DNA from: Bacilli bacterium
GTDB taxonomy: Bacteria > Bacillota_I > Bacilli_A > RF39 > UBA660
Assembly: GCA_017410525.1 (NCBI GenBank)
Contig: JAFQQQ010000005.1
Coordinates: 81,105 to 145,104, forward strand
Direction of reading: 5' to 3'
DNA: 64,000 bases
Of this stretch, positions 17,169 to 42,808 are shown piece by piece (position 1 is the stretch's first letter; every line of letters begins with the position of its first letter). The notes beneath the pieces are model-generated. The model saw only the letters and a list, made by a program, of their open reading frames with translations, was not told the DNA's origin and made no database searches. Both the position numbers and the translations under genes were made by a program.

Positions 17169-18920
17169 ATGTATGATAATTCATCTAGGGTAATAGAAGT
17201 AGATATCAACGAAATATTACCTAATAGATTTCAACCAAGAATACAATTTGATGAAGAAGAAATATTAGAATTATCTGATTCAATAAAAGAACATGGTGTT
17301 ATCCAACCTTTAGTAGTTAGGACTATTGGAGATAAATATGAAATAATTGCTGGAGAAAGAAGATATAAAGCAAGTGTTCTTGCTGGAAAAGAAACGGTAC
17401 CAGTGATTGTTAAAAATTTAAATGATAAAGATAGTGCAGAAATCGCACTTATAGAAAATATACAAAGAAAAAATTTAACACCTATAGAAGAAGCATTAAG
17501 TTATAAAAAAATTCTTGATATGGGATATATAACTCAAGAAAATCTAGCTTCTAAATTAGGTAAAAGTCAATCTGCAGTTGCTAATAAAATAAGATTATTA
17601 AATTTATCTGATGAAGTTCAAGAAGCATTACTTGAAAATAAAATTTCAGAAAGACATGCAAGATCGCTTTTAAAACTTACAACTTCTAAACAACAAAATG
17701 AAATGTTAAATAGAATTATTTCTGAAAGATTAACAGTTAGAAGAGCAGATGAAGAAATAGAGAAAATGAAAAATAACGTAGAGCAGGACAAAAAAGAAGA
17801 TAATCAAATAATCATAGAAAAAGGGGAAATAGATATGAATAATAATATGTTTGGAATGCCTAATGTTCCACAAACTTCACAACCATCAACAGGCTTTGAT
17901 ATATTTGGACCATCAAATCAACAACCAGTACAACCACAACCTGTAGTTAGTGCAATACCAGAGCCTGAGCAACAACTTGTTACTCCAAGTTTTGATATAT
18001 TTGGTGGCTCAGCAACTTTAGAAATGCCTTCGAGTGTACCGGAAGTTGAAGTTCCAACAATGAATATATCAGCAGTGCCAGAAATGCCAGTAATGAGTGA
18101 AATGGGATTTGGAATAAATAATACAGAATCAACAACACCAGAAATATCATCGAGTGTTCCAAAAATTGAAGTTCCAACAATGGATATACCAGCAGTACCA
18201 GAAATGCCAGCAATGAGTGAAATGGGATTTGGAATAAATAATACAGAATCAACAACACCAGAAATATCATCGAGTGTTCCAAAAATTGAAGTTCCAACAA
18301 TGGATATACCAGCAGTACCAGAAATGCCAGCAATGAGCGAAATGGGATTTGGAATAAATAATACAGGATCAACAACACCAGAAATATCATCGAGTGTTCC
18401 AAAAATTGAAGTTCCAACAATGGATATACCAGCAGTACCAGAAATGCCAGCAATGAGCGAAATGGGATTTGGAATAAATAATACAGGATCAACAACACCA
18501 GAAATACCTTCAAGCGTACCAGAAGTTGAAGTTCCAATAATGGAAGTACCAGTTACTTCACCTATTATAGAAACTCCAATAGCTAGTTCTCCAGTAGAGA
18601 TGCCACAACAAATAGAGAATTCATTTAGCTTTGGAAATAATAATATGAATCCTGTTGAAGTATCTACTCCAGCGGTAGAAACACCAGTAGTACCAGAATT
18701 TAAAATACCAGAACCAATTATTGTTACAGATTATTCTAAACAATATGACCCAGTTATGCCACAATATGGACCAGTAGCTCCAGCAGTTGATTTTAAAGAA
18801 GTAATAAATGCAATAAGAGAATGTTCAAATAAAATAGAACAATATGGATTTAAAATAGATGTAGAAGAAATAGATTTAGTAAATTTATATCAAGCAGTAT
18901 TTAAAATAGAGAAACAATAA
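17169..18920 (+). CDS. ParB/Noc-family protein with a long C-terminal 40-aa tandem-repeat region
   Basis: The N-terminal ~200 aa form a ParB-N domain (…IIAGERRYKAS…, HTH). Residues ~285-460 carry 4.4 copies of the repeat PEISSSVPKIEVPTMDIPAVPEMPAMSEMGFGINNTESTT. Sits in the noc position downstream of rsmG. Confidence 0.8.
   Translation: MYDNSSRVIEVDINEILPNRFQPRIQFDEEEILELSDSIKEHGVIQPLVVRTIGDKYEIIAGERRYKASVLAGKETVPVIVKNLNDKDSAEIALIENIQRKNLTPIEEALSYKKILDMGYITQENLASKLGKSQSAVANKIRLLNLSDEVQEALLENKISERHARSLLKLTTSKQQNEMLNRIISERLTVRRADEEIEKMKNNVEQDKKEDNQIIIEKGEIDMNNNMFGMPNVPQTSQPSTGFDIFGPSNQQPVQPQPVVSAIPEPEQQLVTPSFDIFGGSATLEMPSSVPEVEVPTMNISAVPEMPVMSEMGFGINNTESTTPEISSSVPKIEVPTMDIPAVPEMPAMSEMGFGINNTESTTPEISSSVPKIEVPTMDIPAVPEMPAMSEMGFGINNTGSTTPEISSSVPKIEVPTMDIPAVPEMPAMSEMGFGINNTGSTTPEIPSSVPEVEVPIMEVPVTSPIIETPIASSPVEMPQQIENSFSFGNNNMNPVEVSTPAVETPVVPEFKIPEPIIVTDYSKQYDPVMPQYGPVAPAVDFKEVINAIRECSNKIEQYGFKIDVEEIDLVNLYQAVFKIEKQ
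18025..18550 (+). repeat. 120-bp in-frame tandem repeat (~4.4 copies, ~98% identical) inside the ParB/Noc-like gene
   Basis: Period-120 recurrence of ...gaagttccaacaatggatataccagcagtaccagaaatgcc... at 18050, 18170, 18290, 18410 and 18530. Confidence 0.9.
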
Positions 18921-19996: not shown

Positions 19997-21376
19997 ATGC
20001 AAAATAAAATTTTAAGTAGAATATTTTTAGATGTATATCAAAACTTGCCAATGTTTTATAGTAATAAACCTAAAATCAATATAGAAGATTATGATCTGTT
20101 AGAAGCAACTTTAGAAAATTATTTATTAGAAATATTGGGTTATAAAATAAAATATAATTACGAAGATAATTATAGGGAAATAATAAAACTTTTTGAAAAT
20201 GTTTTTTATAACAGTAGATATAAAAATTATAACAACATAATAGAAAGTATAAATACTTATAAAAAAGAATTAAAGGATAAATTAGAAAATCATAAATATA
20301 CTAGTTTATTTATAGATACATTAAGAAAAATGTATAGCAAATCTTATGATGGGAGAATACTTACTAATACTGAAAAAGATTTAAGTTTTTCTACAATAGC
20401 AATTAGTAACAAAGGAAATTCTTTTATGATAGGAAGAATACCTAGAAAAGAAGAACAAATTCTTCCTTCAATACAAATAAATGATATACAAGAATTTGAA
20501 GCTATATTAAAAAAATATATAGAATCGGTTGTATTATCAGATAGTTTTTATAACATATTTAATAATGTGTATTTTACAAACATTTCGTTTGAAGATAAAG
20601 TAAAAACTCTTATAGAGTGCACGTTATTTAATGCGACAGGAACTGACTTAAGTAATATAGAAAATTTTTTTAGAAAATATACAGATTTTATAAATGATAA
20701 AACATTTGATTTTATAAGAAGACCTAAACATATGGGTAATCTATTTAATGATGATTTATATGTAATGTGTAAAAGGTCAGAACTTGAGTATGAAACGCCT
20801 TACTATTTAGCTTTTATGTTAAATAATAAAAGAGTAGAATTACCAAATATAAGAATGGGGATAGAAAATAAAGAAGAAAAAAAAGTTGCACATATTATTG
20901 CTACTCAATCTGCTCAAACCGTATTAAACCAGGAAACATTTCAAGAAATTCAAAAAGAAATAAAAAATAATTTACCAACAGACGCATATTTTAGATTTTA
21001 TAATCCATCCCATTTAGTTTCTATTTTAATGACTTTCGGATTGCTTAAGGGTATTGGAATAGAGGAAGTAGAAGTAAAAGATTTTTTACCTTTTAGATAC
21101 AACAAAACTGTATTAGATAGACAAATGGATCCGGAAGAATCAGATAATTTCCAGAGAAGGTTAACTAATAAAAACTTAATAACATACATGAGACTTATAT
21201 CTGTAGTAGACGGAATAGATATTATAACTTATCCAGAAATGGATATGAGTTTAAAATTGAAGATAGAAGATAATGTTGTTTGTAAGAATGAATTTTTGCA
21301 AAAAATATATGATATGGGATATAAATTAGGCATAGAAAATAAAAATAATTTAGAACAAAATAAAACAATAAAGTAA
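19997..21376 (+). CDS. Hypothetical protein, no recognisable domain
   Basis: ~460-aa ORF with a GGGAG RBS 8 nt upstream of the ATG at 19997 (the ORF track begins at an upstream GTG at 19988). Asn/Lys-rich. Confidence 0.5.
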   Translation: MQNKILSRIFLDVYQNLPMFYSNKPKINIEDYDLLEATLENYLLEILGYKIKYNYEDNYREIIKLFENVFYNSRYKNYNNIIESINTYKKELKDKLENHKYTSLFIDTLRKMYSKSYDGRILTNTEKDLSFSTIAISNKGNSFMIGRIPRKEEQILPSIQINDIQEFEAILKKYIESVVLSDSFYNIFNNVYFTNISFEDKVKTLIECTLFNATGTDLSNIENFFRKYTDFINDKTFDFIRRPKHMGNLFNDDLYVMCKRSELEYETPYYLAFMLNNKRVELPNIRMGIENKEEKKVAHIIATQSAQTVLNQETFQEIQKEIKNNLPTDAYFRFYNPSHLVSILMTFGLLKGIGIEEVEVKDFLPFRYNKTVLDRQMDPEESDNFQRRLTNKNLITYMRLISVVDGIDIITYPEMDMSLKLKIEDNVVCKNEFLQKIYDMGYKLGIENKNNLEQNKTIK

Positions 21377-21443
21377 GGTAGTTATCTACCTTGTTTTTGT
21401 TAGGTAAAGGTGGTAAAATATAATCAACTGAAAGGAGGCAATT

Positions 21444-21722
21444 ATGTTTGAATTAGTATCAAAATATAGTCCTAGTGGAGATCAACCTCAAGCAATAGCA
21501 AAATTAGTTGAAGGCATTAAAAATGGAGAAAAGCATCAAACTTTAATGGGTGTTACTGGTTCAGGAAAAACTTTTACTATGGCAAATGTAATTGCCAAAG
21601 TTAACAAGCCAACTTTAATTCTTGCTCATAATAAAACTCTTGCAGGTCAATTATACGCAGAGTTTAAAGAATTATTTCCTAATAATAAAGTTTGTTTTTT
21701 TATATCTTATTATAATATCTAG
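21444..21722 (+). pseudogene. Truncated 5' copy of uvrB (92 codons, Walker A retained), diverged paralogous fragment
   Basis: [92 protein letters not shown]. This is ~90% aa and ~80% nt identical to codons 1-92 of the intact uvrB at 23064. It has its own AGGAGG RBS. Confidence 0.8.
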
Positions 21723-21982
21723 TACAAAATAACACATAATAAGATTATTTAGTGTTAACAAGTTCTTATAAAATAAGGCATAAAGTAAAATTTAACACTA
21801 ATCAAAACTAGATGCACGATTATAATTTTGTGACCTAATGCGTTTCAAAATTCATCCCTAAAATTTATAGGAGGAAATTATTATTGAAAGAGTTTATTTT
21901 TCTGACCAAAATGTGAAAAGTACTAAAAAAATATAAGTTGTTGATTCAACATTATGTTATAATTAAATAGAGGTATGATAAT

Positions 21983-22858
21983 ATGTATGAAATTTATTTT
22001 AAAAAAGTAGAAGAGGTATTGGATGCTTTTCCTGTTGATTGTAGAACTAATTATTATGAAAATAAAAAAAGTGTAAAAATAGAAATACAAGATGAACTTT
22101 TTAAAAACTTATATGCAACTTATGACCATGAAAAAAATGAAATAGAACTTTATAGAGAAACTGGGTTACCACATGAATTATTTCATATGGCATTTAGAGA
22201 TAAAAAAAAGGTAGAAAAGAAAATATTTGAAGATTCTGATATTATATATGGAAATGGAATTAGTTATAGTCGTGTACAAGATGGTAAAAAAAATACAGCT
22301 GGAAAAGCGATAACAGAGGGATTTGCAGAATATTTATCGAGAAAATGCAGTGAGGAAAAGGGTCATTTACTTGAATTCTTTTTTACAGATTTGCTTATTT
22401 CCATTTATGGTGAAGAAATAATTTGTTATGCACTAAAAAATAATTCTTTTGAATTTTTTACTGATGAAAGATTTAATGATATAATGTTATTTTCAAGAAC
22501 ACTAGATTCTCTATACGATCTTTCTGGTGCTATACAAACAATATCTAGATTCTCTGACATTTTTAAACAAGTATTCAACTCAAATGATGAAGAGGAAAAA
22601 CGTAAATTATCTCGTTCTATTTTTGAAATAAAACAAGGATTTAAAAATTGTGTAGTTAAATTGTTTGAAGTTATAGTTAACGAATATAATAGTTGCAATA
22701 AACCTAAAATATCAAAAGATGACTTTATTTTAAAATTAGAAGAATTTAGTAAAAACACTGATTATCAACATTTTTATAAGCTAGATGATTCAATAGTAAA
22801 CATGACAAAAGAGATAAATAAAATAATAAAAAGATTTAGTAAAGGTAGGAGTAAATAA
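21983..22858 (+). CDS. Hypothetical protein with an HExxH (zincin-like) motif
   Basis: 291 aa. PHELFHMAF is followed ~47 residues later by EGFAEY, consistent with a putative zinc metallopeptidase motif. Flanked by TTGTGACCTAA-containing direct repeats. Confidence 0.5.
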   Translation: MYEIYFKKVEEVLDAFPVDCRTNYYENKKSVKIEIQDELFKNLYATYDHEKNEIELYRETGLPHELFHMAFRDKKKVEKKIFEDSDIIYGNGISYSRVQDGKKNTAGKAITEGFAEYLSRKCSEEKGHLLEFFFTDLLISIYGEEIICYALKNNSFEFFTDERFNDIMLFSRTLDSLYDLSGAIQTISRFSDIFKQVFNSNDEEEKRKLSRSIFEIKQGFKNCVVKLFEVIVNEYNSCNKPKISKDDFILKLEEFSKNTDYQHFYKLDDSIVNMTKEINKIIKRFSKGRSK

Positions 22859-23063
22859 TTTATAGAAAGTTTAAAAAAAGATAAAAACGAAACCTAGTGA
22901 AGGTTTAAATCTTCCAAAAATGTTAAAAAATCCAAAATACAAATTTGTGACCTAAATTCGTCCCAAGCAAAAAAGTCGTGTATTAACCAAAGTTTTGGGG
23001 ACGAATTTTGATACCAATGGGGACGAATTTTTGGTTAATAGTAATCATAATGAGGTGATATAA

Positions 23064-25007
23064 ATGTTTCATTTAGTGTCAAAATATAAACCTTCTGGAG
23101 ACCAGCCACAAGCAATAAAAAAACTAGTTGAAGGTATTAAGAATGGTGAAAAACACCAGGTTTTAAAAGGGGTTACGGGTTCTGGAAAAACTTTTACAAT
23201 GGCAAATATAATTGCTGAAGTTAATAAACCAACACTTATTCTAGCTCACAATAAAACACTTGCAGGACAACTATATGCAGAGTTTAAAGAATTATTTCCA
23301 AATAATAAAGTATGTTTTTTTATTAGCTACTATGATTATTATCAACCCGAAGCTTATGTCGCAAAAACAGATACATATATAGAAAAAGATGCTGCGATAA
23401 ACGACGAAATAGATGAATTAAGACATGCTGCTACTGCGTCACTTTTAAATTTTAATGATGTAATAGTAGTTGCTTCTGTATCTTGCATATACGGTATAGG
23501 TGAAATGGAAGAATATCAAAAAAAGATGTTAACACTCTTCCAAGGACAAACTATTGATAGAGAAAAAATAATAGAAAAATTAATAGATATGCTTTATGAA
23601 AGAAATGATATAGATTTTAAAAGGGGTACCTTTAGAGCTAAAGGAGATATTATAGATATTGTTCCAATAAATGAACATACTAAAGGTATTAGAATAGAAC
23701 TGTTTGGAGATGAGATAGAATCAATAAAAGAGTTTGATCCTATAACAGGAAGCATAACTTCAAATAAAAAATCAATATCTTTATTTCCTGCTAGTCATTT
23801 TGTAACTAGTCCTGAAAAATTGAATAAAGCTTTAGAAAATATAAGAAAAGAACTAGAAGAAAGGTTAGCTTGTTTTCAAAAAAATAATAAACTTTTAGAA
23901 TATCAAAGGCTTAGTGAAAGAACTAATTATGATTTGGAGATGCTTGAAGAAACAGGTTTCTGTAGGGGAGTAGAAAATTATTCTAGACCACTTGCCTTAA
24001 AAGAACCTGGAGCAACCCCAACAACTCTTATAGATTTCTTTAAAGATGATTTTTTGCTTTTCATAGATGAATCACATGTTACTCTACCACAAGTAAGGGG
24101 TATGTATAATGGGGATAGAGCAAGAAAAGAAGTTCTTGTAGATTATGGATTTAGACTTCCTAGTGCGCTTGACAATAGACCTTTAAAATTTAATGAGTTT
24201 GAAGACAAAATAAATCAAGTTATTTATGTATCTGCTACTCCTGGAGACTATGAGTTAGAACATTCCCCAAAACCAGTAGAACAATTAATTAGACCTACAG
24301 GCTTACTTGATCCTACTATAGAAGTTCATCCGACTAAAAACCAAATAGATGACTTAATTGGTGAAATAAATGAAAGAGTAGAAAATAAAGAAAAGGTACT
24401 TATAACAACATTAACAATTAGAATGGCAGAAGAATTAACACAATACTTAAAAGGATTAGATATAAAGGTTGCTTATCTGCACTCAGAGATTAAATCATTA
24501 GAAAGACTTAAAATAATAAGAGATTTAAGAAAAGGCAAATATGATGTAATAGTTGGAATAAACTTACTTAGAGAAGGTTTAGACATTCCAGAAGTATCTT
24601 TAGTGGCTATTATGGATGCTGACAAACAAGGTTTCTTAAGAAGTGAGAGAAGTTTAATACAAACAATAGGTAGAGCTGCTAGAAATGCTAATGGTAAAGT
24701 TATAATGTATGCAGATTACATTAGTGAATCTATGGATATTGCTATAAAAGAAACAGAAAGAAGAAGACAAATACAAGAAGAATATAATAAACAAAATAAT
24801 ATTGTTCCAAAAACAATAATAAAAGAAATAGCTGATATAGTATCTAATGAAGTAGAAGAAGAAATAAAGTTAGAAAAGATGTCTAAACAAGATAAAGTAA
24901 AACTTATGATAAAATTAGAAAATGAAATGAAAGAAGCAGCCAAGAACTTAGATTTTGAAAGAGCTATGGAACTTAGAGATATTCTATTTGAATTAAAAAG
25001 CGAATAG
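23064..25007 (+). CDS. uvrB: Excinuclease ABC subunit B
   Basis: 647 aa with an N-terminal Walker A (GVTGSGKT), helicase motifs, the beta-hairpin region and a C-terminal UVR domain (…[11 protein letters not shown]…). Confidence 0.95.
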
Positions 25008-39182: not shown

Positions 39183-40985
39183 ATGAAACAAAGGGGATTT
39201 ACATTAATAGAGTTATTATCTGTAATAGTGATTCTTGCAATCATCGCACTAATAGCAACGCCCATAATATTAGATATAATAAATGAATCAAAAGAGAAAG
39301 CATATGGTAATAGTGTAGAAAGTATAATGCATGCAGCTAAAATATATAATACAAAGAGTCAATTTAAAAATCCTTTAGTAATGGATCAAAACGTATATAG
39401 CGAAGTAATGGAAATGGTAGATGGAGAAAAACCTGAATCAGGTAATTTGTATATAAATGCAGATGGTGAAATTGCGTTTGCGTTTCAATATGGAGAATTG
39501 TGTTATAGTAAAAGCTATGAGGATGATACATATACAAAGGAAAAAACTAATGTGTGCAATGTACCTTTTTATTATTTGAAATCAGTATCTGCACAAACAA
39601 ATGGAGATGACAACCCTTTTTTAGAAAATACATATGGTATATCAAAGGCAAAAATAGAAGAGATAATAACAGTAAATAGCAATAAAGTGTCTGATGATGC
39701 AATATATAGTTGGGAAGTAACAGATCAGGAGAATGTCAAAGAAGAGTATAAAGTAATGGCTTGGTGTCTAGATGTAGATAAAGATGGATTATATGAAGTA
39801 TATATAGGTCAAAATGGCGGGGTAAAAGCAAACCCAAATTCCTCAAAATTATTTGCTTATTTAACAAATGTAACAAAAATAGATTTAAAAAATTTTGATA
39901 CATCAAATGTGACAACGATGATGGGAATGTTTAATTATTGTAAAAATTTACAAATACTAGATTTAAGTAATTTTAATACTAGCAAAGTAACAACAATGGC
40001 AGGAATGTTCCAACAATGTAATTCTTTAATAGAGTTGAATTTAAGTAGCTTTGATACATCAAATGTGACAGACATTTCTTATATGTTTAACAAATGCTAT
40101 GCATTGACAAAGTTAAATTTAAGTAAATTTAACACTAGCAAAGTAACAACGATGGTTGCAATGTTCCAATACTGTGAATCTTTAACAAAATTAAATTTAA
40201 GTAATTTTGATACATCAAATGTAACAACAATGGCAGGAATGTTTAATTGTTGTAAAAATTTACAAACATTAAATTTAAGTAATTTTGATACATCAAATGT
40301 AACAACAATGTCAATGATGTTTCAACAATGTAATTCTTTAATAGAACTAGATTTAAGTAGCTTTAATACATCAAAAGTGGAAAATATGGAATTAATGTTT
40401 AATAATTGCTATGCATTGACAAAGCTAGATTTAAGTAAATTTAATACTAGCAAAGTAACAACAATGGCAGGAATGTTCCAACAATGTAAATCCTTAAAAG
40501 AGCTAAATCTAAGTATCTTTAATACATCAAAAGTGGAAAATATGGCAGGAATGTTTAGTGGTTGTGAAATATTGACAAAGCTAGATTTAAGTAATTTTAA
40601 TACAAGTAATGTAATAAAAATGAGTGGAATGTTTCAAAATTGTTATAATTTGAAAGAATTAAATCTAAATAAGTGGAATACATCGAAAGTAACAACGATG
40701 TCACATATGTTTAACAATTGTAAAGCTTTAACAGAATTAGATTTAAGCACTTTTGATACGTCAAAAGTAGAATATATTTCTTATATGTTTAATAATTGTC
40801 AATCCTTGAAACAAATAAACTTAAAACAAGCAACATTTGAAAGTATCAAGGAAAACGAATATAACAAAGTTTTTAATGGGGCAACTACTTTAAATAAAAT
40901 AATTGTAGAAGATGATGAAGCAATAACCTGGTTGCAAGCAAGGATAAATGATAATGGATTAACAGCATTAGTATCAAAAACATAA
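39183..40985 (+). CDS. Protein with a type IV prepilin-like N-terminal signal fused to ~17 DUF285/BspA-type leucine-rich repeats
   Basis: N-terminal MKQRGFTLIELLSVIVILAIIALIATPI is the class III prepilin cleavage/methylation motif (G-F-T-L-I-E). Then come reiterated ~26-aa units LxLSxFDTSxVTxMxxMFxxCxxL. Confidence 0.8.
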   Translation: MKQRGFTLIELLSVIVILAIIALIATPIILDIINESKEKAYGNSVESIMHAAKIYNTKSQFKNPLVMDQNVYSEVMEMVDGEKPESGNLYINADGEIAFAFQYGELCYSKSYEDDTYTKEKTNVCNVPFYYLKSVSAQTNGDDNPFLENTYGISKAKIEEIITVNSNKVSDDAIYSWEVTDQENVKEEYKVMAWCLDVDKDGLYEVYIGQNGGVKANPNSSKLFAYLTNVTKIDLKNFDTSNVTTMMGMFNYCKNLQILDLSNFNTSKVTTMAGMFQQCNSLIELNLSSFDTSNVTDISYMFNKCYALTKLNLSKFNTSKVTTMVAMFQYCESLTKLNLSNFDTSNVTTMAGMFNCCKNLQTLNLSNFDTSNVTTMSMMFQQCNSLIELDLSSFNTSKVENMELMFNNCYALTKLDLSKFNTSKVTTMAGMFQQCKSLKELNLSIFNTSKVENMAGMFSGCEILTKLDLSNFNTSNVIKMSGMFQNCYNLKELNLNKWNTSKVTTMSHMFNNCKALTELDLSTFDTSKVEYISYMFNNCQSLKQINLKQATFESIKENEYNKVFNGATTLNKIIVEDDEAITWLQARINDNGLTALVSKT

Positions 40986-41157: not shown

Positions 41158-41943
41158 ATGGGAAAGGTAATAGCATTCGTAAATCAAAAGGGTGGAGTTG
41201 GAAAAACAACTTCAAGTATCAATTTAGCGGCTTCCCTAGGACTTTTAGGAAAAAAGACTTTATTAGTAGACTTAGACCCGCAAGGTAATAGTACTACTGG
41301 TGTAGGAGTTAATAAAGGCGATTTGGAAAGTAGTATATATGAACTTTTAGTAGATAGAGCAGAAGTAAAGAAAGTAGTTGCTAAAACAAAGTTTAAAAAC
41401 TTATATTTAATACCAGCCTCAATAAACTTGGCAGGTGTTGATATGGAACTTATGGAAATAGCAAGACAAAATCCAGAGTTTATTCCACAATTACAATTAA
41501 AAAAATATTTAGGGGAAATAAAAGAAGTATTTGATTATATAATTCTAGATTGTCCACCATCACTTGGACTAATAACAACAAATGCTCTTGCAGCTTCTAA
41601 TTCAGTAATAATCCCGGTACAATGTGAGTTTTTCGCACTTGAAGGAATTATGCAACTCTTGAATTCAATTATGATTGCTCAAAAGAAATTAAATCCAAGC
41701 CTAGATATAGAAGGCGTATTATTAACAATGCTTGATAATCGTACTAATTTAGGACTTGAAGTAGTAGAAGAAATTAAAAGTTACTTTAAAGAAAAAGTAT
41801 ATGATACTATAATACCAAGACTTGTTAGACTATCAGAAGCACCAAGTCATGGTAAACCAATTCATGCATATGATCCAAGAAGTAGAGGAACAGAAGCATA
41901 TATTAATTTAGCTAAAGAGGTGATTGAGAGAAATGGAAACTAA
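41158..41943 (+). CDS. soj: Chromosome partitioning ATPase ParA/Soj
   Basis: Deviant Walker A KGGVGKTT; 261 aa. Confidence 0.9.
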   Translation: MGKVIAFVNQKGGVGKTTSSINLAASLGLLGKKTLLVDLDPQGNSTTGVGVNKGDLESSIYELLVDRAEVKKVVAKTKFKNLYLIPASINLAGVDMELMEIARQNPEFIPQLQLKKYLGEIKEVFDYIILDCPPSLGLITTNALAASNSVIIPVQCEFFALEGIMQLLNSIMIAQKKLNPSLDIEGVLLTMLDNRTNLGLEVVEEIKSYFKEKVYDTIIPRLVRLSEAPSHGKPIHAYDPRSRGTEAYINLAKEVIERNGN

Positions 41944-42808
41944 GAAAAGAGCTTTAGGTAGAGGTTTAGAACAATTATTTAACAATGAAAACTTAGACTT
42001 AAATAGTTTTGAGCAAAAAGTTTATGAAACAGCAACTAATGAAGAAATAATAGATATAAACTTGAGTGATTTAAGAGCAAATCCGTATCAACCTCGTAAG
42101 GTATTTAATGATGAAGCATTAAATGACTTAGCTGAATCAATAAAAGAACATGGCGTTTTTCAACCAATCATTGTTAAAAAAAGTATAAAAGGTTATGAAA
42201 TAATTGCAGGAGAAAGAAGAGTTAGAGCGTCTAAACTTGCTGGGCTTGAAAAAATTCCAGCAATCATTCGTAATTTAAATGATGAACAAATGATGGAAAT
42301 AGCACTTTTAGAAAACTTACAAAGAGAAAACTTAAGTGCGATAGAAGAAGCAGTTGCTTATAAATCTATGATAGAAAAATTAAATCTAACGCAAGAGGAA
42401 TTAAGTAAAAAAGTAGGTAAAAGTAGAAGTCATATAACTAATATTTTAGGATTACTTAGACTTCCAAAAGAAGTTCAAGAAATGGTTGCGCATAATAAAC
42501 TTAGCATGGGACATGCCAGAGTATTAAGTAAGTTAGAAGATAATGAAAAAATACTTGAAATGGCAAGACAAATAGTTGAAAGAAAAATACCGGTAAGAGA
42601 ACTTGAACAACAAGCAGAAGATAAGGCTAAAAAAGTAAAAATAGAAAGACACGCTAAATCAGTTAATAACGATTTTAAATATGTTGAAGAATTATTAAGA
42701 GAAAAATTAGATACAAAAGTAAAAATAAAAGATAAAAAAATAGAAATAGCGTTTACAAATGTTGCAGATTTAAATAGAATACTAGAAGTATTAAATGTAA
42801 GAGAATAG
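41924..42808 (+). CDS. spo0J: Chromosome partitioning protein ParB/Spo0J
   Basis: 294 aa with GERRVRAS and HTH motifs; overlaps soj. Confidence 0.9.
   Translation: MREMETKKRALGRGLEQLFNNENLDLNSFEQKVYETATNEEIIDINLSDLRANPYQPRKVFNDEALNDLAESIKEHGVFQPIIVKKSIKGYEIIAGERRVRASKLAGLEKIPAIIRNLNDEQMMEIALLENLQRENLSAIEEAVAYKSMIEKLNLTQEELSKKVGKSRSHITNILGLLRLPKEVQEMVAHNKLSMGHARVLSKLEDNEKILEMARQIVERKIPVRELEQQAEDKAKKVKIERHAKSVNNDFKYVEELLREKLDTKVKIKDKKIEIAFTNVADLNRILEVLNVRE

Follow-up and report, generated by a model that had tools for sequence, protein, structure and literature searches.

The stretch of DNA analyzed here (the window) comprises 64 kb of contig JAFQQQ010000005.1, has a G+C content of 27.5%, and represents the origin region of an uncultured Bacilli metagenome-assembled genome (MAG). 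This report concerns a 1620-bp insert (positions 21714-23333) within the 5′ part of the DNA-repair gene uvrB. Read along the forward strand, on which all of these features lie, the locus comprises an open reading frame (ORF) denoted ORF459 (19997-21376), a short spacer, a 92-codon ORF that corresponds to the start of uvrB (21444-21722), an ORF denoted ORF291 (21983-22858), and a full-length uvrB (23064-25007). The insert itself consists of a left arm, ORF291, a right arm, and a replacement copy of codons 1-90 of uvrB. An earlier note, made from the sequence of the window alone, had likened this layout to a site-specific integration, or a small accessory cassette, at the uvrB 5′ end, and comparison with related loci bears out that a small accessory cassette integrated site-specifically in the 5′ region of this gene.

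The Displaced and Replacement 5′ Ends of uvrB

The 92-codon ORF and the start of the intact gene (23064-23342) are identical at 226 of 279 nucleotides (81%) and at 83 of 92 encoded amino acids, in agreement with the ORF coordinates and the duplication of codons 1-92 given in the earlier note. Over the 92 codons the two copies differ by 32 synonymous and 9 non-synonymous changes in addition to the stop codon, and over codons 1-90 alone by 32 synonymous and 7 non-synonymous changes, which upholds the proposal that the copies diverged within functional uvrB genes. Homology between them stops at nt 270, the stop codon of the fragment occupies nt 277-279, and no similarity was detected upstream or downstream of both copies outside of this 270-nt match.

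The loci used for comparison (L001-L072) are contigs that were fetched, including those that encode close homologs of ORF459. Two of these (L013 and L014) are metagenome contigs from a strain 97-99% identical to the window, and they present a precise empty site in which ORF459 is followed by a 67-bp spacer and an uninterrupted uvrB, with flanks that are 96.7-99.5% identical to those of the window. Specifically, identity between the window and L013 is 99.5% on the degV side, 96.7% across ORF459, and 97% across the spacer. The earlier note had asked whether degV would lie directly beside uvrB in an empty site; the actual order, found in L013, L014, L015, L001, and L002, is degV (minus strand), ORF459, 67-bp spacer, and uvrB, and neither a uvrB fragment nor ORF291 was present in any of these five contigs. 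The insertion is thus polymorphic among closely related hosts.

The empty-site allele also reveals which of the two 5′ ends is foreign. Nucleotides 1-270 of the fragment (21444-21713) match L013 uvrB at 265 of 270 positions (98.1%) and encode an identical sequence over codons 1-90, whereas nt 1-270 of the intact gene (23064-23333) are 83.0% identical to the same allele and the remainder of that gene (nt 271-1743 in the comparison; 23334-25007) is 96.8% identical. Because of this difference in identity to the empty-site allele, the fragment is the native and displaced 5′ end of the host uvrB, and it is the intact gene that begins with 270 nt of foreign sequence. This is the reverse of the polarity initially proposed, in which the fragment was the acquired piece. 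A tandem duplication in situ was considered and rejected given the differing ancestry of the copies (98% versus 83% identity to the empty allele).

Both joints fall at one nucleotide, after TAT TAT in the fragment and after TAC TAT in the intact gene. The left junction (attL; TATTAT, codons 89-90, 21708-21713) is followed by the first nucleotide of the element at 21714, such that codons 91-92 and the stop codon of the 92-codon ORF are supplied by the left end of the element, and the right junction (attR; TACTAT, 23328-23333) marks the end of the element-borne segment. Similarity of the fragment to the L013 allele ends at nt 270, and the last clustered mismatches between the intact gene and that allele are at nt 262-267, which places the switch in identity at nt 267/268. 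The chimeric uvrB (23064-25007) is intact and encodes a 647-aa protein with all UvrB Pfam domains, since the cassette brings its own promoter and the first 90 codons.

The Same Junction in Other Hosts

A break after codon 90 (Ser-Tyr-Tyr) was identified in the window and in L016, L029, L032, L035, L057, L069, and L072, and therefore in at least eight host backgrounds. In a protein search with the fragment, the best-scoring 120 matches were all short (88-160 aa), and 74 of these 120 break right after the two tyrosines (residues 89-90), with another 11 breaking one or two codons later. Several of these matches are on contigs of 100-400 kb. The tails that follow the break fall into classes, including NI, NC, or NV (92 aa), a 12-residue tail (102 aa), DYDL (94 aa), and EIWPILGLFC (100 aa). 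In all occupied alleles examined, the switch point in the downstream uvrB is at nt ~261-279.

Near-identical left arms adjoin different genes at this junction. In L016, a copy of ORF291 (96.4% nt identity) and a left end that is 90% identical lie behind a uvrB fragment only 73% identical to that of the window, and this fragment is cut at the same codon (SYYNC* versus SYYNI* in the window). L069 and L072 carry 92-codon fragments that are 78-79% identical to that of the window, have different upstream genes, and share the left arm of the window element at 88-92% identity. The single cargo gene is thus exchanged behind the same arm: ORF291 in the window and L016, a gene for a 253-aa protein in L072, and a gene for a 212-aa protein in L069. 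The L072 element is a complete unit of 1686 bp with the same design as that of the window.

Other occupants of the site are larger or arranged in tandem. A conjugative-type element (the left 10 kb of which was examined in L029 and L035) comes after the fragment in L029-31 and L035-37; encoded on it are ParA, a ParB-N protein, a SpaA-repeat surface protein, a sortase, and a ~2390-aa SNF2-type helicase. L032 (8496-13244; also L033) contains an array of three fragments (47, 102, and 39 codons) with cargo behind each of them and an intact uvrB downstream. L035 contains a 29-codon fragment, a RhuM-family gene, a 102-codon fragment, and then the conjugative-type element, and L057 contains a 102-codon fragment, genes for a HAD hydrolase and an MFS transporter, and then uvrB. 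Collectively, as judged from their shared junction and ends, these loci define an element family at this uvrB site that comprises one-gene cassettes, tandem arrays, and recombinase-bearing and large conjugative-type elements, and that ranges from 1.6 kb to >20 kb.

Two kinds of gene in these arrays deserve a separate mention. The L032/L033 array encodes two ~85%-identical paralogs (377 and 378 aa) without a family match, a 385-aa homolog of which is encoded in L057, and these proteins may represent a recurrent type of cargo. The RhuM-family gene between the 29-codon and 102-codon fragments (L035 8818-9942; also L036 and L037) looks like an older cassette that accreted with the large element.

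Conserved Arms and Repeat Motifs

The left arm (P′ arm) of the window element spans ~160 bp (21714-21870, forward strand) and holds ATTTAGTGTTAAC, TTTGTGACCTAATGCGT (21827-21843), and, on the minus strand, GGGATGAATTT (21848-21858). The right arm (P arm) spans ~120 bp (22944-23063, forward strand), includes the element-borne uvrB promoter and ribosome-binding site (RBS), and holds TTTGTGACCTAAATTCGT (22944-22961), a minus-strand copy of GGGACGAATTT (22954-22964), and direct copies of GGGGACGAATTTT at 22997-23009 and 23019-23031.

Both arms are conserved among loci that differ in host fragment, in cargo, or in both. The left arm is 88-92% identical to the left arms of L069, L072, and L016, and it can be aligned to the left ends of other family members, namely the conjugative-type elements (L029, L035, and L036) and the L032 and L057 cassettes. 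This alignment shares the TAYTAT core, a TATTTAGTGTTA box ~40 bp inside, and, at ~+115 to +135 bp, AAATTTGTGRCY-N3-4-ATTCGTCCC, behind which most left ends have one more ATTCGTCCC. The right arm is ~97% identical to that of L072 and aligns with the interval between the tandem integrase genes and uvrB in L049 and L051 and with the regions upstream of uvrB in L032, L057, and L016. The order at right ends is AATTTGTGGCCGAnATTCGTGTCC, a spacer of ~40 bp, two direct GGAcACGAATTTT repeats 21-22 bp apart, TGGTTGA, AATCATAAT, an RBS, and the uvrB start codon (ATG). Conserved attachment arms around a short TAYTAT core are what is expected of a site-specific integrative element, and the retention of both attL and attR around a sole gene, ORF291, with genes for integration and transfer absent, is the composition of a cis-mobilizable element (CIME).

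The earlier note had drawn attention to TTTGTGACC repeats on either side of ORF291 and considered that they might be a common promoter element. These repeats do bracket the cargo and are conserved features of the element rather than genome-wide promoter elements; however, the count of the 11-mer alone is not significant, as TTGTGACCTAA is present in the window only at 21828 and 22945 and at least two matches were found in 46 of 100 shuffled sequences. In each arm the TTGTGACCTAA box is the innermost one to be conserved, which is why the two boxes bracket the variable cargo. The longer shared pattern TTTGTGRC-N3-6-ATKCGT has two matches, at 21827 and 22944, against 0.00 expected, and among 68 loci then fetched it was confined to those with uvrB elements and was always in the orientation of uvrB. 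At loci with distant homologs of ORF291 it was absent.

GGGACGAATTT is present in four copies in the 64 kb, all between 21848 and 23030, with two per strand, against 0.5 expected. That such repeats are near uvrB had been recognized previously, with direct copies placed at 23003-23035; the copies are ~5 nt to the left of this, and two others are on the opposite strand. Rather than being particular to this locus, the GGGGACGAATTTT repeats are part of the conserved right arm and promoter region of the whole element family. The four GGGACGAATTT copies are a second arm motif, and the TTTGTGRCC and GGGACGAAT motifs in both arms are probably arm-type binding sites of tyrosine recombinases. A LexA/SOS box was considered for GGGACGAATTT and ruled out, as it is found in the arms alone and is missing in front of uvrB in element-free genomes.

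Candidate Recombinases at the Right End of a Related Element

A scan of metagenome contigs with the right-arm pattern identified L049 and L051, in which two adjacent genes (encoding 399 and 432 aa) immediately precede the right arm and uvrB; scans of viral contigs with the same pattern and with the second of these integrases returned nothing relevant. Both proteins contain a Phage_integrase domain (PF00589; E 3e-20 and 2e-16) and N-terminal SAM-like domains, are paralogs of one another (25% identical), and are preceded by a PemK/MazF toxin gene. Their N-termini, judged by eye, resemble the arm-binding domains of heterobivalent integrases. Against the cut-off for integron integrases (265 bits), the two proteins score 42 and 23 bits. 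L049 and L051 are 100% identical over at least 5.5 kb at the right end of the element, the part that was examined, through nt ~260 of uvrB, and are ~70% identical beyond this point. One element was therefore caught in two different host uvrB genes, with the switch located as in the window.

Model of Integration

We consider it highly probable that 21714-23333 is a 1620-bp non-autonomous, CIME-like integrative mini-element that inserted site-specifically between nt 270 and 271 of uvrB, most likely by means of the recombinases of a related element, which could also move it again. The excised circle would carry an attP site composed of the right arm, promoter, uvrB nt 1-270, TAYTAT, and left arm, with a predicted attP junction of ...ATTAGCTACTAT|AATATCTAGTACAAAATAAC... 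and a native attB of ...TCTTATTAT|GATTATTATCAACC.... Recombination of attP with uvrB at nt ~265-275 would produce the observed arrangement, in which the host 5′ end would be left as a 92-codon ORF behind its native promoter-like site and the element-borne 5′ end would be fused in frame to host codons 91-647, yielding a full-length chimeric uvrB under the control of the element promoter. A mini-element without recombinases would need those of a related element, and we propose that tyrosine recombinases of such an element catalyze the reaction, acting in trans or, after accretion, in cis.

Several points weigh against this model. The excised circle and the attP junction are predictions and not among the observations, and a protein-binding role of the arm motifs is one that we infer. 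No recombinase, including homologs of the L049/L051 pair, is encoded in the element or elsewhere in the 64-kb window, the tandem recombinases come from one place alone, the right end of the L049/L051 element, and this pair is not tied to the conjugative-type elements of L029 and L035 in the left 10 kb of these. Further, the sequence that follows ORF291 in L016 is unrelated to that in the window (62%), and transfer of the whole unit between the window and L016 hosts is therefore not demonstrated. Lastly, although the right arm and uvrB nt 1-150 of L072 are 97% identical to the window, the comparison of the replacement segments (window 23064-23333 versus L072 6560-6829) is mosaic, with 97% identity over nt 1-150 and 72% over nt 151-270, and neither half of either element-borne 5′ end matches the respective host fragment. 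This suggests that different element lineages have recombined inside the replacement segment.

The explanation that competes best is that the insert is a decayed remnant, namely that a full-size element of the integrative and conjugative element (ICE) type lost everything except its ends and one gene and never moved as a 1.6-kb unit. Decay of ICEs and integrative and mobilizable elements (IMEs) into integrase-less CIMEs is a documented route (PMC5704250), the window is without an integrase, and large conjugative-type elements with homologous left arms occupy the same site. However, at least four loci (the window, L016, L069, and L072) join left arms of 88-92% identity to single cargo genes that differ among loci, in different uvrB backgrounds, and L072 retains the complete design. 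Independent deletions would not be expected to leave the same minimal layout repeatedly. Homologous arms on conjugative-type elements, taken with a recurrent minimal design and swapped cargo, fit either decay or a dedicated cassette, and we regard a history of decay alone as possible but rather unlikely.

A broader version of the cassette model is that the uvrB 5′ site serves as a cassette platform, at which integrase-less mini-elements with one cargo gene are inserted, stacked, and shuffled by the heterobivalent recombinase pair of larger elements, where the two enzymes would have TTTGTGRCC and GGGACGAAT as their arm sites and the incoming promoter would control expression of nucleotide excision repair (NER). 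We put this forward tentatively, as a proposal with somewhat less than an even chance of being correct. If true, it would amount to integron-like gene capture built on lambda-type attachment arms and combined with replacement of the 5′ end of a gene.

The 92-Codon ORF as a Probable By-Product of Integration

The native spacer between ORF459 and uvrB (21377-21424, forward strand) contains a hairpin with a T-run (stem at 21375-21392) and a promoter-like site, TTGTTA-16-TATAAT (21397-21424, forward strand; score 10/12), that now precedes the 92-codon ORF and its native RBS; both features are consensus matches only. A scan of promoter-like sites returned 14 against 12.2 expected in shuffled sequences and was not enriched, and our promoter assignments are therefore suggestions only.

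The ORF could in principle be a selected gene, for example a decoy or regulator of NER, as the earlier note had raised. The promoter-like site, RBS, and Walker A motif are all retained, every difference from the empty-site allele is synonymous, and short ORFs for UvrB N-termini are very common. Nevertheless, there are only five nucleotide differences from L013, and hence no power to detect selection. In Pfam the product matches only an N-terminal piece of ResIII/DEAD; its ~90 residues, from domain 1a, cannot form a helicase fold, whereas a functional UvrB comprises domains 1a, 1b, 2, and 3 and a C-terminal UVR domain. Moreover, such fragments arise at every insertion. Because their tails (NI, NC, NV, or the 12-residue tail) vary with, and are set by, the left end of the inserting element, and because older fragments in arrays have decayed to 29, 39, and 47 codons, the ORF is most simply read from these patterns as a by-product of integration, and a selected function appears improbable.

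Still less probable is homology-facilitated illegitimate recombination or allelic replacement, in which foreign DNA with ORF291 and a uvrB 5′ end would have been taken up and joined through one homologous crossover within uvrB and one illegitimate joint. The two uvrB 5′ ends share homology (81%), that of the donor is clearly of foreign origin, and a homolog of ORF291 near uvrB in L006 indicates that a donor with such an arrangement could exist. However, L006 is without arm motifs, the arms are common to recombinase-bearing elements, and both joints fall at nt 267-271, with the same joint in many unrelated host alleles; the right-hand crossover is not variable, and all alleles examined switch within the interval given above. 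A point insertion predicts that both joints fall at the same nucleotide, which a homologous crossover or illegitimate joint does not.

ORF291 and ORF459

In the product of ORF291, a helical domain comes after a putative gluzincin-type zinc metallopeptidase domain. The HExxH motif that the earlier note had pointed out is real and nearly invariant among 50 homologs: the protein carries HELFH and, downstream, EGFAEY, such that HExxH and the downstream glutamate that acts as third zinc ligand in gluzincins (MA clan) are both present, with E65 and E112 invariant, H64, H68, and E116 conserved in at least 90%, and G113 invariant or nearly so. The AlphaFold2 (AF2) model has a pLDDT of 94.6. In Foldseek searches against PDB and BFVD, the N-terminal ~110 residues alone gave weak matches to minigluzincins (selecase, probability 0.93, E 0.3), MATCAP, IrrE, and SprT-like proteins. 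No match was obtained in Pfam, PADLOC, PHROG, or NCBIfam scans or in a PDB profile search with the ORF291 alignment. Like the minigluzincins selecase and jannalysin, the protein combines a small alpha/beta N-terminal domain with an HExxH motif and, ~45 residues later, an ExxxE motif (EGFAEY); unlike them, it matches no Pfam or NCBIfam profile, compares at an E of 0.3 or worse with low TM-scores, and has a 170-residue helical C-terminal domain without counterpart. ORF291 most likely encodes a zinc metallopeptidase with a helical C-terminal domain.

The ORF291 family comprises 78 clusters down to ~30% identity in Bacilli metagenome bins. Homologs with ≤41% identity in 12 reference genomes and several metagenome contigs are located away from uvrB and are without arm motifs, and the absence of the arm motif at these distant homologs identifies ORF291 as captured cargo rather than mobility apparatus. 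It is therefore hardly credible that ORF291 is itself the mobility enzyme, a novel HExxH-type recombinase or nuclease homing into uvrB, even though it is the sole gene of the element and belongs to no annotated family, given that near-identical arms carry unrelated cargo elsewhere and that its conserved motif, together with the hints from its fold, points to a zinc peptidase.

In L006 (5998-10270), a homolog of ORF291 (49% identity) lies two genes upstream of uvrB, with a Flg_new/dockerin protein encoded between them and no fragments or arm motifs. This arrangement may be a coincidence or may hint at the place where the cargo gene was captured.

ORF459 lies outside of the insert. The earlier note had counted this ~460-aa ORF among the cargo, but homologs occupy the same position 67 bp upstream of uvrB in all five empty-site contigs, at 98% (L013 and L014), 89% (L015), and 78% (L001 and L002) amino acid identity, and it is therefore a resident chromosomal gene. 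The family comprises 94 clusters down to ~30% identity in Bacilli metagenome bins and had no Pfam, PADLOC, PHROG, or NCBIfam match; the AF2 model (pLDDT 87.8) gave only weak matches to the GNAT fold in Foldseek searches of PDB and BFVD (NatD, probability 0.91, E 0.015). Distant homologs that are not linked to uvrB include a 534-aa version in L003-L005 (L003 4073-5677), located after infC-rpmI-rplT and before a D12-class methyltransferase gene.

Other Features of the Window

The remainder of the 64-kb window consists of core genes, including the origin-region genes gyrA/B, dnaN, dnaA, mnmE/G, rsmG, a ParB-like gene, and degV, and a prophage or integrase elsewhere in the window was ruled out on this basis. 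The gene at 17169-18920 (forward strand) encodes a ParB/Noc-like protein with ParB_N and HTH_ParB domains and a long C-terminal extension of ~4 tandem repeats of ~40 residues (…SSVPKIEVPTMDIPAVPEMPAMSEMGFGINNT…); the protein is 497-583 aa in length among relatives, and a canonical ParA/ParB pair is encoded separately at 41158-42808. At 39183-40985 (forward strand), a 600-aa protein begins with a type IV pilin-like N-terminus (MKQRGFTLIELL…) and continues with many leucine-rich repeats of ~23 residues each ('LNLSNFDTSNVTTM' type). Among the empty-site contigs, L001 and L002 encode the same 78%-identical homolog of ORF459 and differ in content downstream of lgt, with a phage-like block (ERF and SSB) at L001 10473-14566 and a diversity-generating-retroelement pair (bAvd and reverse transcriptase) at L002 9097-9729 after genes for a Na/Ala symporter and UDG. 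Strains therefore seem to vary further in the region near the origin.

Relation to Known Integrative Elements

CIMEs and their tandem accretion at the attachment sites of ICEs and IMEs have been described, for example in the ICESt1/ICESt3-related islands at the 3′ end of fda in Streptococcus thermophilus (Pavlovic 2004; Bellanger 2011; as summarized in PMC5704250). The window element is like a CIME in being integrase-less, in keeping both attL and attR, and in sharing its site with full-size elements. Unlike the CIMEs at the 3′ end of fda, its target is in the 5′ portion of uvrB, after 270 nt of coding sequence, and each element must carry a promoter and 90 replacement codons. A further difference is that one subfamily joins near-identical arms to different single cargo genes, which looks more like a cassette system than random decay.

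Integration at the 5′ end of genes by tyrosine integrases is rare, but it is known from streptococcal ICEs that insert at the start of ftsK, rbgA, or ebfC (PMC4701971). As in the uvrB elements, the N-terminus of the target protein is preserved and the upstream promoter is sometimes replaced (PMC4701971). However, in these ICEs the direct repeats measure 12-54 bp and lie at the start codon or overlap it, and one integrase is encoded (PMC4701971), whereas the uvrB element replaces 270 nt of diverged coding sequence (81%) and, in its recombinase-bearing form, encodes two tandem paralogs.

Differences from other cassette systems are also evident. Integron cassettes rely on attC inverted repeats, IntI, and attI, unlike the uvrB elements, the arms of which comprise motifs in direct orientation and 270 nt of uvrB. 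At the 3′ end of staphylococcal rlmH (orfX), recombinase-less staphylococcal cassette chromosome (SCC) and pseudo-SCC elements form arrays and depend on the recombinase pair of a related element; SCC elements use large serine recombinases (CcrAB), a 3′-end site, and short repeats. The candidates for the uvrB elements are instead tyrosine recombinases, and the site is inside of the 5′ coding region. Tn554-like transposons, which also encode TnpC, may resemble the uvrB elements in having two tyrosine recombinases and a single preferred site. Our literature searches returned no account of an attachment site in uvrB or of an element family like this one. What distinguishes the family from known ICEs, IMEs, and CIMEs is a target 270 nt inside of uvrB, replacement of 90 codons together with the promoter, a tandem recombinase pair in the recombinase-bearing member, and, in a subfamily, interchangeable single-gene cargo between near-identical arms.

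Implications

These observations reveal an overlooked integration hot spot inside of a universally conserved DNA-repair gene of uncultured gut and rumen Bacilli. The short ORF for the UvrB N-terminus marks the left end of the element, which allows mobile DNA to be cleanly delimited in MAGs, and the element family explains the ~92-102 aa UvrB N-terminal ORFs in public databases, some of which carry the label 'DEAD/DEAH box helicase family protein' or 'excinuclease ABC subunit B.' Cassettes composed of arms plus one gene, together with a recombinase pair, raise questions about mobilization in trans and could provide a compact integration tool for low-GC Gram-positive bacteria. For the hosts, replacement of 90 codons and the promoter keeps UvrB functional and may rewire the regulation of uvrB.

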